Shown piece by piece: positions 4,078 through 51,732 of a DNA stretch of 64,000 nucleotides. This DNA is from a virus. Its lineage: Duplodnaviria; Caudoviricetes. The first letter of the stretch is position 1. Every line of letters starts with the position of its first letter. The stretch spans positions 128,001-192,000 of the IMG/VR virus record IMGVR_UViG_3300002835_000001, one strand, 5' to 3'. A program made the translations under genes and the position numbers. The notes beneath the pieces were generated by a model, which saw only the letters and a program-made list of their open reading frames with translations, made no database searches and was not told where the DNA came from.

Positions 4078-4681
4078 TTTCGTGTGTATTGTTAAAAAAG
4101 ACCCTAAAATTAAATGAAGGGTTTATATCTGTATAAATACTTGAAAAGTTGGATTTACATATAATTCCCTTGAAATTTGATATATTTTCTAAGTATCCTT
4201 GTGATGGTACGGTTTGTTTGAATATCCCATGTTCGTCACATAATTTTTCACATAATTTTGCAACAGCTTTCATCTGGTCTTCTCCGTATTTGTCCCAAAA
4301 ATAATAATTCCTCCAATTACGAATGTATGGTTCGGACCTATATGGGTCGCCAATCCAATTATTAAGGATGCCAGTGATAGTATTTTTAGAAAGCCAACCC
4401 AAGTTCTCGATTGCAATTTTAATCATCTTATTGTCAATCTTTGGGTTTCCAAAAGTTTCGGATGATTGGTTAGTATCGAATAATTGATAAACATCACCCA
4501 TCTTAGAAACAACAAAATGGGGTATATCTTCATACATCCCATTTTTACGATACTTTATCATATTGATAAAATCGTCAACTCTTCTTTGTGTGTCGTATAG
4601 TAATATTTGTGTTTTCTTAGACTTTCTTCGACTGACGTTTAGATTTTTATTATTAATAGTTTCAATTTCATATATCGACAT
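4067..4681 (-). CDS. N-acetylmuramoyl-L-alanine amidase (Amidase_2/PGRP)-fold protein, probably non-catalytic
   Basis: Pattern QILLYDT...PHFVVSKMGDVYQL...IAIENLG...EDQMKAVAKLCEKLCDEHGI...TDINP follows the amidase_2 layout; expected Zn-ligand histidines absent. Confidence 0.65.
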   Translation of the reverse strand: MSIYEIETINNKNLNVSRRKSKKTQILLYDTQRRVDDFINMIKYRKNGMYEDIPHFVVSKMGDVYQLFDTNQSSETFGNPKIDNKMIKIAIENLGWLSKNTITGILNNWIGDPYRSEPYIRNWRNYYFWDKYGEDQMKAVAKLCEKLCDEHGIFKQTVPSQGYLENISNFKGIICKSNFSSIYTDINPSFNFRVFFNNTHENEK

Positions 4682-4691
4682 TGTTCCACAT

Positions 4692-4946
4692 TTAATTAGT
4701 GTTATTGTTTACCTCATCGTCTGAATTTGGTATAATAACTTTATTATTTTCCAAATCGTAAATCACTTGATTTGGGTTTATTTCATCCTTTTCCAAATAT
4801 AATTCCTCATCATATTGTTTAATATTCTTTCTTTTATTCGGTCCGTGTCCGTAATAAAAAGGAATATGTGTTCCTATATTTGAAAACCCAAGGTTACTCG
4901 ATGATTGGGTTAAATTTAATTCCTGTGTTTGGGGTTCTGATTCTAC
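4692..4946 (-). other. 84-codon -1-frame extension of the upstream membrane-protein gene (frameshift product or homopolymer error)
   Basis: After GAA AAA AAA AAG TAG the -1 frame is open from GTA (4946) to TAA (4694-4692), contains no ATG and is closed by TGA codons just before the A10 run. Confidence 0.6.
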
Positions 4947-6400
4947 TTTTTTTTTTCATCATCAGAATCAGATGATGTGTTTTGGTCAATTGCGTCGTTA
5001 ACCACTTTTAACATTACATCAATCTCTTTAATTTCTGACTGATAAACAGGTTCGTCGGTTGACTCTTCGGGTGTCACAGATGGGTTGGGTACTTGTTCTT
5101 CCCAATAACGTTTTTCCATTTCTTCATCCCATCCATCTTCTATCGATTCTTGATTAAACTCATTAATTGCCTCGGTTAAATAATTCTCATTTTGGAAAAT
5201 ATTCTCCGTATTTGGTGTTATAGTGGAAAAATTTTCCTGAATTTCTTCTTCTGTTGGTTCTTCTTGTAAAATTTTCTCTACTTCTTCTTCAGTAAAGAAT
5301 GGTTCCTCATCCTCTAATCCGTCCATTAATGTTCCGTCCCAATGAGAGATATCATCGTCCAAATCATACCTCTCTCCAAATGGTGCGACTGACTCCATTT
5401 CTTTTTTAAACGCATATTCAACCTCTTTAATTAATTCGTCATCAAATGGTTCATCATATAATCCCAACTCTTGGTCGTTCTTCATAATTTCAGATAATAA
5501 CTCTCCCCTTCGTTTATATTCCTCAGCTGCCGATTTTAATTTTTCGTTTGGTTCCGTTTTGTTTAGTAACGCATCTTCTAATATTTTTAAATCATTTTCT
5601 GATAAATGCACTCTTGTGGTTTCATCAACAAAGTTTTTTAAATCTTCGGGTGTTGATTCATCATCTTTACCTCTCATAACCAATTGATTAAATGCGATAA
5701 TCAGAGCAATTGCCAATGGGTCAAATACAATTACAATTAAAATGATAAAAAATTTAACGACACTGTTTAATTCAACACCAAACGCCTCAGCAACAAATCT
5801 AAACCCCCCAACTTCCTTTTCAAGTCCTAAGTTTTCAGTTTTAATTTTATTAATCTCATCATTTTCTTTTGCGTTATCTTGTTGTAATAAAGATATGTTG
5901 TCATTAAGTTTTGCAATTTGTTTATCTCTATTATCTATTGAACGGAGTAAACGTGAATTAACTTTACCACCATCAATAATCTTACCTTGATTAGAATTAA
6001 ATTCCGTAATTTGTGTTGATAGTTGTTTTATTTGTGCTTCGTTCTGTTGAATCTTTGTTGTGTGAATTAATAATTCTCTATCGACTTGTTGTAATGCAAG
6101 ATTTTGTTGTTGAAACGCATTTGAAAGATATCCAAAAATCCCCGCCGATGTGATTAACATTAAAATTCCCACAGAAAATGATAGGTACCATTTATTGAAT
6201 CCTTTTATCTCATTCCATTTTTGTTTTAAATAAGTTGCCGAAACAATTTTCGCCAATTCTAAAGAACTTGCCATAACCATAACTGCAACCGCAGCACCAC
6301 TAAATAGTACCCCCAATCCAGTTACTGAAAAATATGCAGCACTACCCGCAATTAAAATTGCCGATAATGCCACTAAGTATTTTAACCAATTTTTTTCCAT
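4943..6400 (-). CDS. Multi-pass membrane protein with periplasmic coiled coil and long acidic tail
   Basis: N-terminal hydrophobic helices (aa ~5-95), Q/N/K-rich coiled coil, hydrophobic FFIILIVIVFDPLAIALIIA, then D/E-rich tail. Confidence 0.8.
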   Translation of the reverse strand: MEKNWLKYLVALSAILIAGSAAYFSVTGLGVLFSGAAVAVMVMASSLELAKIVSATYLKQKWNEIKGFNKWYLSFSVGILMLITSAGIFGYLSNAFQQQNLALQQVDRELLIHTTKIQQNEAQIKQLSTQITEFNSNQGKIIDGGKVNSRLLRSIDNRDKQIAKLNDNISLLQQDNAKENDEINKIKTENLGLEKEVGGFRFVAEAFGVELNSVVKFFIILIVIVFDPLAIALIIAFNQLVMRGKDDESTPEDLKNFVDETTRVHLSENDLKILEDALLNKTEPNEKLKSAAEEYKRRGELLSEIMKNDQELGLYDEPFDDELIKEVEYAFKKEMESVAPFGERYDLDDDISHWDGTLMDGLEDEEPFFTEEEVEKILQEEPTEEEIQENFSTITPNTENIFQNENYLTEAINEFNQESIEDGWDEEMEKRYWEEQVPNPSVTPEESTDEPVYQSEIKEIDVMLKVVNDAIDQNTSSDSDDEKKK

Positions 6401-6401
6401 A

Positions 6402-7211
6402 TTACAAATAATTTAAGAGACTAAAGCTCTCGTTTCTTAATTTTTTAATTGCCTTATCACGTAGTTGTCTAATACGTTCTTTAGTACAACCAAACTCCTC
6501 ACCTAAATCTTCTAAGTTAGACTCAATTCCTGTTAATCCATAATATCTTTCAATAATTACTTTCTCTCTGTCATCTAACACACTTAACATCGCAGCAACC
6601 TTTTTCTTAATTTCTTCCGGTGTATTCATTAACTCTTCTGGATTCAACGCGTCTTTGTTTGGGATTACGTCAATTAGTTGGTCTCCCTCATCATTAATTT
6701 GTTTATAAAGACCAACACAATATGGTAGGTTAGAAATGGGTTCATCTCCCGTAGAAATAAAAAACTTATCTTCATTTCTAGATCCTTCCTCTTTTCTTGC
6801 CTTTTGAGCTTCTTGGATTAAATTAGATGGAATACGAATTGTTCTTGAATTCTCGTTAAGAGATGCCATGATAGATTGTCTAATCCACCACACAGCATAT
6901 GATATAAATCTCAACCCACTTGTTGGGTCAAATCGTTCAGCTGCTTTAATTAAACCAATATTACCTTCCGAAATTAAATCAAGTAAATCCATACCTTGAT
7001 TTTGAAACATCTTCGCAGATGAAATAACAAACCTTAAATTACTTACAACAAGTTCGTCATATAATTTTGTTTTCTCCTCTTTGGTAATTTTTTTATTCTT
7101 TAATAACTCAAAGATTTCATCTTGTCTTTCGTGTGTCATAACAGGAATCTTACGGATGTCCTTGATGTAACTTTGAATTTCGTCGGGATTTAGAATGATA
7201 GACTTTTTCAT
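6402..7211 (-). CDS. Phage-encoded sigma-70 family RNA polymerase sigma factor (RpoD/RpoH-like, regions 1.2-4); start revised to ATG at 7211
   Basis: LVVSNLRFVIS, DLISEGNIGLIKAAERFD, RFISYAVWWIRQSI (region 2) and LEDLGEEFGCTKERIRQLRDKAIKKLR (region 4 HTH). Confidence 0.95.
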   Translation of the reverse strand: MKKSIILNPDEIQSYIKDIRKIPVMTHERQDEIFELLKNKKITKEEKTKLYDELVVSNLRFVISSAKMFQNQGMDLLDLISEGNIGLIKAAERFDPTSGLRFISYAVWWIRQSIMASLNENSRTIRIPSNLIQEAQKARKEEGSRNEDKFFISTGDEPISNLPYCVGLYKQINDEGDQLIDVIPNKDALNPEELMNTPEEIKKKVAAMLSVLDDREKVIIERYYGLTGIESNLEDLGEEFGCTKERIRQLRDKAIKKLRNESFSLLNYL

Positions 7212-7260
7212 ACTTGTTGGTTTAAATGGTGATTTGTATGTTAAAGATAAGTAAAATATT

Positions 7261-7713
7261 CTATTTCTCAAAATTATCTAAGAAATTTTTTTCTTCGGGG
7301 GTTAAACTATCAATACCCATCTGTTCTATTTTTTCAAGTAAGTCATCCAAATCCATTGATGGTGACTCAATTCTATTACGATCGTAGTTAATTGTCATGA
7401 TTCCACCCTCTTTGTCCATGGGTTTAAAAATAAATTCTTTCACTTCTTTTGGTAGATGTGCGGTAACTAAACTATCTCTATCGAATATAAAATAAAACTT
7501 GACTTGGTCTACGGATAAAATTGAAAATAACTCAGTTGATATAGTTTTATAATCACTATCTGAGTCAAATATAACAATAATATTTTGTGAATTTTCTATA
7601 ACGTATCTAACACTATCGATTATTGGATTATCACCCAAAACGTCTGAACAAAAATATTCAACATCTTCATGATCGTCGAACATACCAAAAACAAAAAGAA
7701 TATATGTTTTCAT
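7261..7713 (-). CDS. Hypothetical protein with C-terminal DUF6576-like helical motif
   Basis: C-terminus LDDLLEKIEQMGIDSLTPEEKNFLD resembles the D-x-ILDKI...G..SLT-x-EEK-x-x-L motif. Confidence 0.65.
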   Translation of the reverse strand: MKTYILFVFGMFDDHEDVEYFCSDVLGDNPIIDSVRYVIENSQNIIVIFDSDSDYKTISTELFSILSVDQVKFYFIFDRDSLVTAHLPKEVKEFIFKPMDKEGGIMTINYDRNRIESPSMDLDDLLEKIEQMGIDSLTPEEKNFLDNFEK

Positions 7714-50249: not shown

Positions 50250-50705
50250 TTACAATTGATAATTCAAGTATGTGGTTTCCAATTCTTCTGAAGACAGGAT
50301 GTCAGTTAAGTCTGACAAGATACGCTTCAAATTTGGACGGATATCGACAGTATACCTAACCTTTGGATGATAGTAATATGCTGGGAATATTCTTTGAATA
50401 AATACATCTTCATTCAATTTAATTTCCAATAAAAAGTGTTCTCTATCCTTCTCGGGAGCGTCTTCCACATAGTCCGAAGATAGGAAATAATTTTGATTTT
50501 CGCACAAATAATCAGAACTTTTTATTTTTAAATCTTCAGAAATATCCTCACAAATATTTCTTAGATAATAATGAAGGTCCATAGATCGTCTCGAATTTTC
50601 CACATGATCCTTTACATTAAAGAATCTTTGACAAATAATGTTTCCCTCTAATGTTAATAGGAATTCAAATTTTGTAATGTCCGGTTGTTGTTGGTAGTTA
50701 CTCAT
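50250..50705 (-). CDS. Hypothetical protein in replication operon (151 aa)
   Basis: ORF track; between 5'-3' exonuclease and helicase. Confidence 0.75.
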   Translation of the reverse strand: MSNYQQQPDITKFEFLLTLEGNIICQRFFNVKDHVENSRRSMDLHYYLRNICEDISEDLKIKSSDYLCENQNYFLSSDYVEDAPEKDREHFLLEIKLNEDVFIQRIFPAYYYHPKVRYTVDIRPNLKRILSDLTDILSSEELETTYLNYQL

Positions 50706-51720
50706 AACTTTTGATTTTAATTATTTTTTTTTTATTTTTTTCTTTTGTTGTTAATCGAAGGAATGGGTTTAAGAATTTAACAAATCCATCATCTGATTTT
50801 GGTAATAGATTAAAAATTCCATCGTCCCTCATCATTCTCATGGCGTTTTTGTAAGACCTACCTTCTTGATCTAAGTTTTCATTTATTAGTAAATCTATGT
50901 TTTCTTTAGCCTCGTCGGTTAAAAAAGGTTCTTCCAAACTTACGATACGATTGTTTATATCAAAAAACTCCTCACCTAATACACCATGTTTGGTAACACC
51001 TGTTAGTAAATTCGCAATAAGTTTGTTGTGTTTGTCTTGTTGAAAGATTTCCTCACATTTGTTCTTAACTTGTTCAACAGAAATTTGTTGTGTTTTTAGT
51101 TCGGGAAAAACCGATAAAAATCGTTTTACGCCCATCCCTCTTATGCCGGCAATGTTGTCTGAGGAGTCACCACACATCATCTTAACCAATTTAACATTTT
51201 CAATTAAGATTTCCTCGTGGTTATAAACAATTGTATCGTTTTGTTTGTAAAGTTTTCCGTGTGACGGATTGTAGATTTGTGTATTTTTTGAAACCAATTG
51301 TGTTAGGTCTCCGTCTGAAGAATAAACTATTTTATTTTCTTTGGGTGAATTCTGAGTATAGTATGCAATGTTGTCATCAGTCTCACAATACTCATATTCT
51401 CCCTGTCTTACGAATAACTCTTCAAGATATTGTTTTACTCTATCTCTTTGGTAACCGTAAGAGTTAACTTCTTCTTCAGAACGAAGTCGTGATCTTCTGT
51501 TTTCTTTGTAAGGTGCGTAAATTTTCTTACGAGTTTGGGACCCTTCTAATCCATCCCAAAATACAACTATCTTGTCTAAATTGTACGTCTCAAATGTTCT
51601 TCTAAGAGTATTAAGAAAATGATACATTCCCCCAATGTGTTCTCCATTATGAAAGGCATTTTTAACGCCATAGAAACCAATCGTAAGTAAATTGTCGCCA
51701 TCTACTAATAAAACAGACAT
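50698..51720 (-). CDS. 5'-3' exonuclease / flap endonuclease (T4 RNase H, PolA N-terminal-like)
   Basis: LLVDGDNL, VVFWDG, YKENR, ETDDNIA, SSDGDLTQL, GDSSDNIAGIRGMG. Confidence 0.93.
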   Translation of the reverse strand: MSVLLVDGDNLLTIGFYGVKNAFHNGEHIGGMYHFLNTLRRTFETYNLDKIVVFWDGLEGSQTRKKIYAPYKENRRSRLRSEEEVNSYGYQRDRVKQYLEELFVRQGEYEYCETDDNIAYYTQNSPKENKIVYSSDGDLTQLVSKNTQIYNPSHGKLYKQNDTIVYNHEEILIENVKLVKMMCGDSSDNIAGIRGMGVKRFLSVFPELKTQQISVEQVKNKCEEIFQQDKHNKLIANLLTGVTKHGVLGEEFFDINNRIVSLEEPFLTDEAKENIDLLINENLDQEGRSYKNAMRMMRDDGIFNLLPKSDDGFVKFLNPFLRLTTKEKNKKKIIKIKSYE

Positions 51721-51732
51721 TAAATAAATTTA

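Follow-up and report, generated by a model that had tools for sequence, protein, structure and literature searches.

Does the gene of a phage membrane protein end where its reading frame ends? The locus that raises this question lies in a 64,000-nucleotide (nt) stretch of a Caudoviricetes genome (positions 128,001 to 192,000 of IMG/VR record IMGVR_UViG_3300002835_000001), referred to below at its full length as the window. In it, the open reading frame (ORF) of a 485-amino-acid (aa) membrane protein stops directly after a run of ten A's (A10), and behind the run a second frame lies open up to the next gene, which encodes an amidase. An earlier note, made from the window sequence alone, had proposed that a change of frame at the run yields two isoforms of the protein, the longer of which carries a hidden -1-frame extension. 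This core prediction is strongly supported by comparative evidence. Relatives from lake metagenomes share the site, which most likely enables the phage to make both a short form and a form that is 84 residues longer. We further propose, with a probability of roughly 60%, that it is a programmed recoding site giving two C-terminal length variants by hairpin-assisted transcriptional slippage, i.e., by the insertion of one A into the transcript.

Reading frames at the end of the membrane protein gene

The 3' end of the 485-aa ORF reads GAT GAT GAA AAA AAA AAG TAG, with a run of exactly 10 A's (4956 to 4947; Table 1), so the earlier description of the end of this gene is confirmed by direct reading. 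In the -1 frame, a TGA (4958-4956) lies right before the run and is followed by AAA AAA AAA GTA GAA. As the earlier note had also stated, this frame is blocked before the run, then open, and lacks ATG; we measured 87 codons up to the TAA at 4694-4692, of which 84 specify new residues after KKK. Its first TTG is codon 54, inside the conserved motif described below. At about 0.083 stops per codon (arithmetic from the window composition), the chance of an open stretch of 87 codons is about 5e-4, and the composition thus makes a chance origin of the open -1 frame unlikely. Homopolymer runs of at least 10 bases occur twice in the window, versus 3.9 expected under a first-order Markov model. The other run of 10 (50724-50733, minus strand; A10 on the coding strand) belongs to a 343-codon frame (50698..51729), whose stop follows 9 codons later, and the ATG of the next gene lies close behind the run. 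The TAG stop, which had been singled out as unusual, is indeed rare (the minus-strand ORFs of at least 100 aa in the window end in 40 TAA, 4 TAG, and 1 TGA), but it is without significance here, since all three stop codons occur at the zero-frame stop position among relatives.

Conservation of the run and of the frame change

Protein scans of IMG/VR and metagenome contigs provided 85 related loci, mostly from lake water (listed identities down to about 45%). In nearly all of them, the homolog of the extension was assigned by tblastn to the frame that is -1 to the main ORF. The 44 distinct out-of-frame relatives (IMG/VR and metagenomes) all carry GAA AAA AAA AAN in the identical phase. Their run is A10 in 34 sequences and A11 in 10, all of which need the same -1 shift, and the base after the run is T (28), C (11), or G (5). 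In every one of the 44, the zero-frame stop is found 0 to 2 codons past the AAN codon, and the two frames are open together over mostly just 13 to 28 nt. More distant loci, including one at 35% identity (L059), share the layout. The check that the earlier note had suggested, a search of related genomes for the A-run and the downstream frame, therefore gave both in 44/44 out-of-frame relatives. It had also envisaged relatives with 11 A's and a continuous ORF, as would result from an error in the run; the large majority of relatives keeps the -1 layout, and the in-frame minority keeps the run.

A wider family search returned 6,049 matches (E ≤ 1e-10), from which the 120 best-scoring cluster representatives (90% identity) were classified. 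Among these, 104 (87%) terminate at the run, with E/D-K-K-K/N plus 0 to 3 residues, and 2 end four residues past it. Nine are in frame, 3 read a third frame, and 2 fit neither pattern, one of the latter being clearly cut short.

In these genes, about 20% of the Lys codons are AAG and about 20% of the Glu codons are GAG. From codon usage alone, GAA AAA AAA would be expected in 51% of cases per lineage, and AAA-AAA accounts for only half of the KK pairs elsewhere; A10 or A11 is nonetheless present in every relative, in-frame ones included. By this comparison, the run is constrained at the nucleotide level beyond coding need.

These observations bear on the possibility that the run is a homopolymer assembly error, or the frame behind it a decaying pseudogene tail, so that the real gene is continuous or ends at the TAG. 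Homopolymers are error-prone in some sequencing chemistries, and a few relatives have extra frame breaks elsewhere, yet contigs from many JGI, ENA, NCBI, and Logan samples and assemblies agree, and a homopolymer error shared among so many different sources is not credible. A10 and A11 runs alike need the same -1 shift. A decaying tail would also be expected neither to be under purifying selection (see below) nor to remain stop-free over 60 to 116 codons and, in every relative, to span the interval up to the next gene. We regard both versions as very improbable. The extra frame breaks (L046 and L048) lie upstream of the run and are probably assembly errors or mark defective genomes; L046 has about 9x coverage according to its record name.

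Coding evidence for the extension

The ratio omega in the extension frame is 0.04 to 0.28 in 15 of 18 pairs of out-of-frame relatives, while it is about 1 in the shifted frames. This selection on the tail is seen between out-of-frame genomes with a synonymous divergence (dS) of 0.2 to 0.35. It is unevenly distributed: the ratio of nonsynonymous to synonymous polymorphism (pN/pS) is 0.57 in the linker (i.e., weak constraint) and 0.08 in the C-terminal motif (i.e., strong purifying selection). The motif reads LY[L/W]EKD..NPNQVIYDLENNK.IIP.S.DE; across 35 sequences, E55 and P61 are invariant, and L52, Y53, Y66, D67, L68, and I75 are near-invariant. The tail aligns with the C terminus of the proteins of the L006 clade, in which the motif belongs to one continuous ORF.

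The extension runs for 60 to 116 codons without a stop in the relatives and ends between -38 and +21 nt from the amidase start in 44/44 of them, while the zero-frame stop would leave a gap of 184 to 292 nt before that gene. Independent initiation within the -1 ORF was considered as a source of the tail and rejected. Most relatives lack an ATG in this ORF, and no ATG or conserved start codon lies ahead of the motif; the first TTG or GTG is scattered anywhere from codon 4 to codon 78, and therefore no independent start is conserved. Taken together, the comparisons indicate that the extension is coding sequence that can be reached only by a change of frame.

About half of the relatives (L015, L020, L023, L035, L037, L056, L058, L059, and others) carry an additional basic C-terminal tail (..RNV.N.RRR..R), which overlaps the amidase start by 29 to 38 nt. 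The window's clade has lost this tail and ends in an acidic, Asn-rich stretch.

A hairpin directly upstream of the run

The RNA hairpin of the window (Table 1) has a predicted energy of -7.8 kcal/mol, and no spacer separates it from the A-run. Within its own gene, it ranks among the best 0.5% of positions in a strict hairpin search and among the best 2.7% of 32-nt windows folded with RNAfold. A covariance model of the hairpin gave a single match in the 64-kb window. An upstream hairpin is present in all 38 distinct out-of-frame sequences, where it ends 0 to 5 nt from the run and in 26 cases abuts it. The median energy of these 38 hairpins is -4.7 kcal/mol, versus a background of about -1.8 kcal/mol. 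In a MAFFT alignment, 70% of the cells at paired positions were paired, compared with 61.5% in shuffles, and the covariation score was 0.256, compared with 0.139; for either value, none of 500 shuffles reached the observed one and all slid controls of the covariation score were lower, although these statistics overstate the significance because the sequences are related and not independent. A model-based alignment of 42 sites gave the same picture (70 to 71% paired), the model having been built from these same sequences.

In five of the seven base pairs of the main helix, both partners vary. In L008, the stem is CGTCATC/GATGACG, versus CATCATC/GATGATG in the window, and both of the compensating changes are synonymous. 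Compensatory stems also occur in L015 (CATCTTCA/TGAAGATG) and L065 (CATCACC/GGTGATG), while L037, L058, and L059 have unrelated stems at the same position. The hairpin is thus maintained in relatives via compensatory change.

The reverse complement of the hairpin (plus strand, 4957-4977) initially drew attention as a terminator-like site. We do not read it as an antisense terminator, because the T-rich tail behind 4957-4977 is not conserved in relatives.

How the frame may be changed

The arrangement of the site suggests the following course of events. Unslipped expression would give the 485-aa form ending in EKKK. Once RNA polymerase (RNAP) has transcribed the whole T10 template tract, the RNA-DNA hybrid would consist wholly of rA:dT pairs, and the nascent hairpin would form directly behind it, as in an intrinsic terminator in which A's replace the U's. 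The transcript could then realign and one extra A be added, giving an A11 mRNA. Ordinary translation of this mRNA would yield a 569-aa form with a flexible linker and the conserved motif of about 30 residues, and would end 10 nt before the amidase start codon.

The RNA-DNA hybrid in a transcribing polymerase is 9 to 10 bp long. The run of 10 matches this length, and the hairpin could reach the hybrid at the moment when all of it is rA:dT. Hairpins that immediately precede a shift site, such as the attenuator hairpins of coronaviruses, attenuate -1 programmed ribosomal frameshifting. Conversely, a nascent hairpin adjacent on the 5' side stimulates RNAP slippage in a Roseiflexus IS630 element, as summarized in PMC5009743, and a run of nine A's or T's is enough for efficient slippage of bacterial RNAP in vivo (PMC5009743). 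On the strength of this hairpin precedent, the sufficiency of nine A's or T's, and the attenuating effect of upstream hairpins on ribosomal frameshifting, slippage with the insertion of one A is favored. The earlier note had mentioned transcriptional slippage as its second option; the ten conserved A's and the adjoining upstream hairpin make it the better fit.

The first option of that note was a ribosomal shift of the Escherichia coli dnaX type. If this were the main route, the mRNA would remain A10 and some ribosomes would re-pair tRNA-Lys one base back on A_AAA_AAA/G. The heptamer pattern X_XXY_YYZ does occur in the zero-frame phase, as A_AAA_AAA and A_AAA_AAG in the window and as A_AAA_AAA in 44/44 out-of-frame relatives, with the zero-frame stop within 0 to 2 codons. 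A_AAA_AAG is the dnaX shift site of E. coli (PMC5009743), and ribosomes are known to slide on iterated AAA codons (PMC4363877). The heptamer of the earlier note is thus present in the window, but its final G is not conserved (the Z base is T, C, G, or A), and neither are any stimulators. No downstream stem-loop or pseudoknot was supported in the window (70 nt; -6.5 kcal/mol; z = 0.03) or over 46 relatives (mean z = -0.73), whose folds share neither position nor shape. No conserved Shine-Dalgarno-like element of the GGAGG or AGGA type was found within 36 nt upstream of the run; the scattered GAGGA strings there derive from Glu codons. Moreover, the ten conserved A's exceed the seven that would do, and the hairpin, the element that is conserved, immediately precedes the site, where it would be expected to attenuate a -1 shift. 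We therefore consider ribosomal frameshifting or poly(A) sliding unlikely as the main route, if a serious competitor, and slipping of ribosomes on A_AAA_AAA/G may contribute.

Several points weigh against transcriptional slippage as proposed here. The heptamers stand in the right phase for a -1 ribosomal shift in every out-of-frame relative, and ribosomal sliding extends to long A stretches in general (PMC4363877). The Roseiflexus hairpin, in the account given in PMC5009743, promotes a deletion, while the phage site needs an insertion, and T runs induce slippage of E. coli RNAP more readily than A runs do (PMC6260861). With -3 to -10 kcal/mol, the hairpins are weak, and roughly one in three lies outside the common register. 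The length of the run varies between lineages at the DNA level (A10 in L035 and A11 in L086; likewise, L089 and L004). Finally, three RNA runs cover parts of the locus, and one RNA-library contig spans 4685-4897 within the extension, but no RNA contig bridging the run (4947-4956) was found among the assembled contigs of these runs; the public-run data are assembled Logan contigs, which drop rare variants. Seventeen runs contain at least half of the sampled words of the locus.

In-frame and third-frame genomes

Some lineages read the extension in frame, and they reach it in different ways. L086 and L090 have one more A (G-A11) and keep the hairpin (-6.7 and -9.0 kcal/mol). L087 has an additional T after an unchanged A10, also with a hairpin (-7.4 kcal/mol). 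In L088 and the L006 clade, TT replaces the G before an unchanged A10; the hairpin is absent in the TT-A10 lineages L088, L006, and L007 (0.0, -1.3, and -0.5 kcal/mol) and weak in L050 (-3.4 kcal/mol). Its absence there is a hint that slippage may depend on the hairpin. If one A were lost in the in-frame genomes, translation would stop immediately or one codon later. The persistence of the run in either frame fits a site kept for making both forms, and the in-frame lineages that kept it argue that both forms are wanted.

Three family members (L089 [P0077], P0094, and P0160) read a third, nonhomologous frame after the run and end in junk tails of about 30 residues. L089 does so because its run is one A shorter than in sister contigs (A10, versus A11 in L004).

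Such differences raise the question of a contingency locus, in which replication slippage would toggle the run within populations, only in-frame genomes would make the long protein, and assemblies would report the majority off state. The lineage run lengths do differ (G-A11 and in frame in L086 and L090; A10 and out of frame in L035 and the window; A10 in L089 versus A11 in L004), and 9 and 3 of the 120 representatives are in frame and in the third frame, respectively. However, L086 and its out-of-frame sister L035 differ at 9% of nucleotides (91% identity) and are consequently separate lineages rather than variants within a population, and differences in run length were seen only between lineages differing by 9% or more. 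As many as 87% of the representatives share one out-of-frame state, purifying selection on the tail persists between out-of-frame genomes (dS, 0.2 to 0.35), two of the in-frame solutions (L087; L088 and the L006 clade) use a base outside the run and keep A10, and replication slippage does not require a hairpin maintained by covariation. An assembled DNA contig from a 2024 lake run also crosses the site with A10 and no indel, which is weak evidence, as this single contig may be the source assembly itself. Toggling at the DNA level is accordingly quite improbable; since the length of the run does change in DNA over time, we retain it as a minor alternative to slippage during transcription.

Genomic context and protein architecture

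All of the genes near the slip site are on the minus strand (Table 1), and the gene order orf150, sigma factor, membrane protein, amidase, orf168, and orf80 is kept in all relatives. A further ATG (ATG TGG AAC AAT GTC GAT ATA TGA; 4679-4694, minus strand) lies between the TAA of the extension and the ATG of the amidase. It overlaps the amidase start out of frame and could matter if the two genes are coupled.

TABLE 1 Features of the slip site and of the flanking genes in the window
Feature	Positions	Strand	Remarks
Upstream sigma-70-type factor gene	6402..7271	-	Stop 1 nt before the membrane protein ATG
Membrane protein gene, zero frame (short isoform)	4943..6400	-	485 aa; ends EKKK-TAG
RNA hairpin on the coding strand, CATCATC-tgattct-GATGATG	4957..4977	-	3' arm ends at the G before the A-run
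Putative A10 slip site, phase GA AAA AAA AA	4947..4956	-	Ten A's invariant in all 44 out-of-frame relatives
Zero-frame TAG stop, terminates the short isoform	4943..4945	-	Directly 3' of the slip site
-1-frame ORF, 87 codons plus TAA	4692..4955	-	KKK, weakly constrained linker, conserved C-terminal motif
Conserved extension motif, residues 52-81 of the -1 ORF	4713..4802	-	From column conservation, pN/pS, and the AlphaFold2 model
Downstream Amidase_2 gene, endolysin-like, 204 aa	4067..4681	-	Starts 10 nt past the extension stop

The N-terminal 250 residues of the membrane protein comprise membrane helices and a long coiled coil; the tail that follows is acidic and mostly disordered and, by the positive-inside rule, would be cytoplasmic. 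The AlphaFold2 model of the 485-aa protein shows the same division into a helical N-terminal part and a mostly disordered tail, with a mean predicted local distance difference test (pLDDT) score of 50.7, which is too poor for a fold search. For the extension, the mean pLDDT is 64, and only residues of about 60 to 85 are ordered; the conserved motif is modeled as two short strands and a helix (block pLDDT, 74 to 86), the rest of the extension being disordered. Within the acidic tail, a stretch resembling TacA1/DUF1778 antitoxins (PF08681, profile positions 38-79; residues 255 to 296; 5513-5638, minus strand) is found not just in the window but also in relatives, the L006 clade among them, at 21.8 to 25.3 bits, just above the cutoff of 21.

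The N-terminal membrane domain has weak matches to hypothetical proteins of cultured large phages and is the only part with such matches. GenBank phages contained no DNA match to the locus, and the acidic tail and the extension likewise had no protein matches among them. PHROGs contained nothing similar to the membrane protein or to its extension. The central part of the protein shows great plasticity within the family (P0008 to P0033 and L059), with Pro/Thr-rich inserts and duplicated acidic modules, and the L006 clade has a different N-terminal membrane domain. Despite this plasticity, the flanking sigma factor and amidase genes of the family members are 57 to 80% identical. It may be speculated that the role of the protein is tied to the neighboring sigma factor or amidase. 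A complex prediction for the extension with the amidase scored 0.00 and provides no evidence either way.

The hairpin and the A10 run could also form one tunable, terminator-like transcriptional switch that, besides fixing the ratio of short to long isoform, comes under control during infection, with nucleotide pools or phage transcription factors (the adjacent sigma factor or the NusG homolog encoded elsewhere in the genome) as examples of possible regulators. Since the long frame ends at the amidase start in every relative, such a switch could gate the translation of the endolysin-like amidase, and slippage might then time lysis-related expression. We put this forward as a tentative and rather doubtful extension of the slippage model.

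Comparison with known recoding systems

The closest known case is tssM1 of Citrobacter rodentium. In this gene of the type VI secretion system, and in tssM of Yersinia pseudotuberculosis, slippage on an A11 run gives two variants, both of which are required (PMC4256274). As in the present gene, the frame of an inner membrane protein is interrupted just after a poly(A) run; A's added by RNAP give a truncated form and a full-length form, and both variants and their ratio are reported there to matter. In contrast, tssM is a bacterial secretion gene with the interruption in few strains, and the abstract mentions no upstream hairpin. The phage genes form a large family in which the out-of-frame state is the rule (104/120 representatives), slippage here being a prediction from sequence.

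The geometry of the site has its counterpart in the Roseiflexus IS630 element (Penno et al. 2015, as presented in PMC5009743), where a nascent stem-loop stands directly 5' of the slip motif in an arrangement like that of an intrinsic terminator. That account describes a U5C5 motif, a GC-rich hairpin, and the deletion of one base in a transposase gene, whereas the phage site has a pure A10, AT-rich and weak hairpins on which slippage is predicted to depend, and a requirement for insertion. The dnaX gene of E. coli shares the heptamer with the window and likewise gives two products with a common N terminus. It differs in needing an upstream Shine-Dalgarno-like element and a downstream stem-loop and in that its shifted frame stops at once; in the phage family, neither these stimulators nor the G is conserved, and the shifted frame adds 60 to 116 residues.

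Homopolymer runs of about nine bases also give mixed mRNAs in dnaX of Thermus thermophilus and in spa13/spa32, spa33, and mxiA of Shigella (PMC5009743), which are cellular or plasmid genes of other families. The end of the spa13 extension overlaps the start of the following gene, whose expression it influences (PMC5009743); the same may hold for the amidase here. In the P/V editing of paramyxoviruses (PMC8204654), the slip site is similarly conserved while lineages differ in which product is the faithful copy. That system is unrelated, the polymerase of an RNA virus inserting G at a different motif. The G/GT pair of phage lambda resembles the present case as a phage gene pair with a short product and a long -1 product, made at a fixed ratio, and differs in its ribosomal frameshift at a heptamer, its tail genes of known function, and its lack of a long homopolymer.

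A literature search returned nothing specific on this gene family or on a poly(A) slip site in a phage membrane protein. The trick is thus of a known kind and, as far as searches of GenBank phages and the literature show, has not been described previously for any phage membrane protein. New here are the hairpin with compensatory changes, the census, the switches to in-frame reading, and the constant end of the extension at the amidase start.

Conclusions

In most metagenomes, this gene is cut short by gene callers, with an apparent gap of about 200 to 290 nt behind it; the annotations of this phage group are therefore systematically wrong at the membrane protein locus. If the proposed mechanism is true, the site would be the second natural case of hairpin-assisted RNAP slippage and the first one on a plain homopolymer and in a phage, and its many natural sequence variants are available for deriving the rules of slippage. 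For the phages themselves, it would mean that a large natural family, whose database proteins from lake phages and some marine ones number in the thousands, uses a poly(A) slip site to make two products from one gene.

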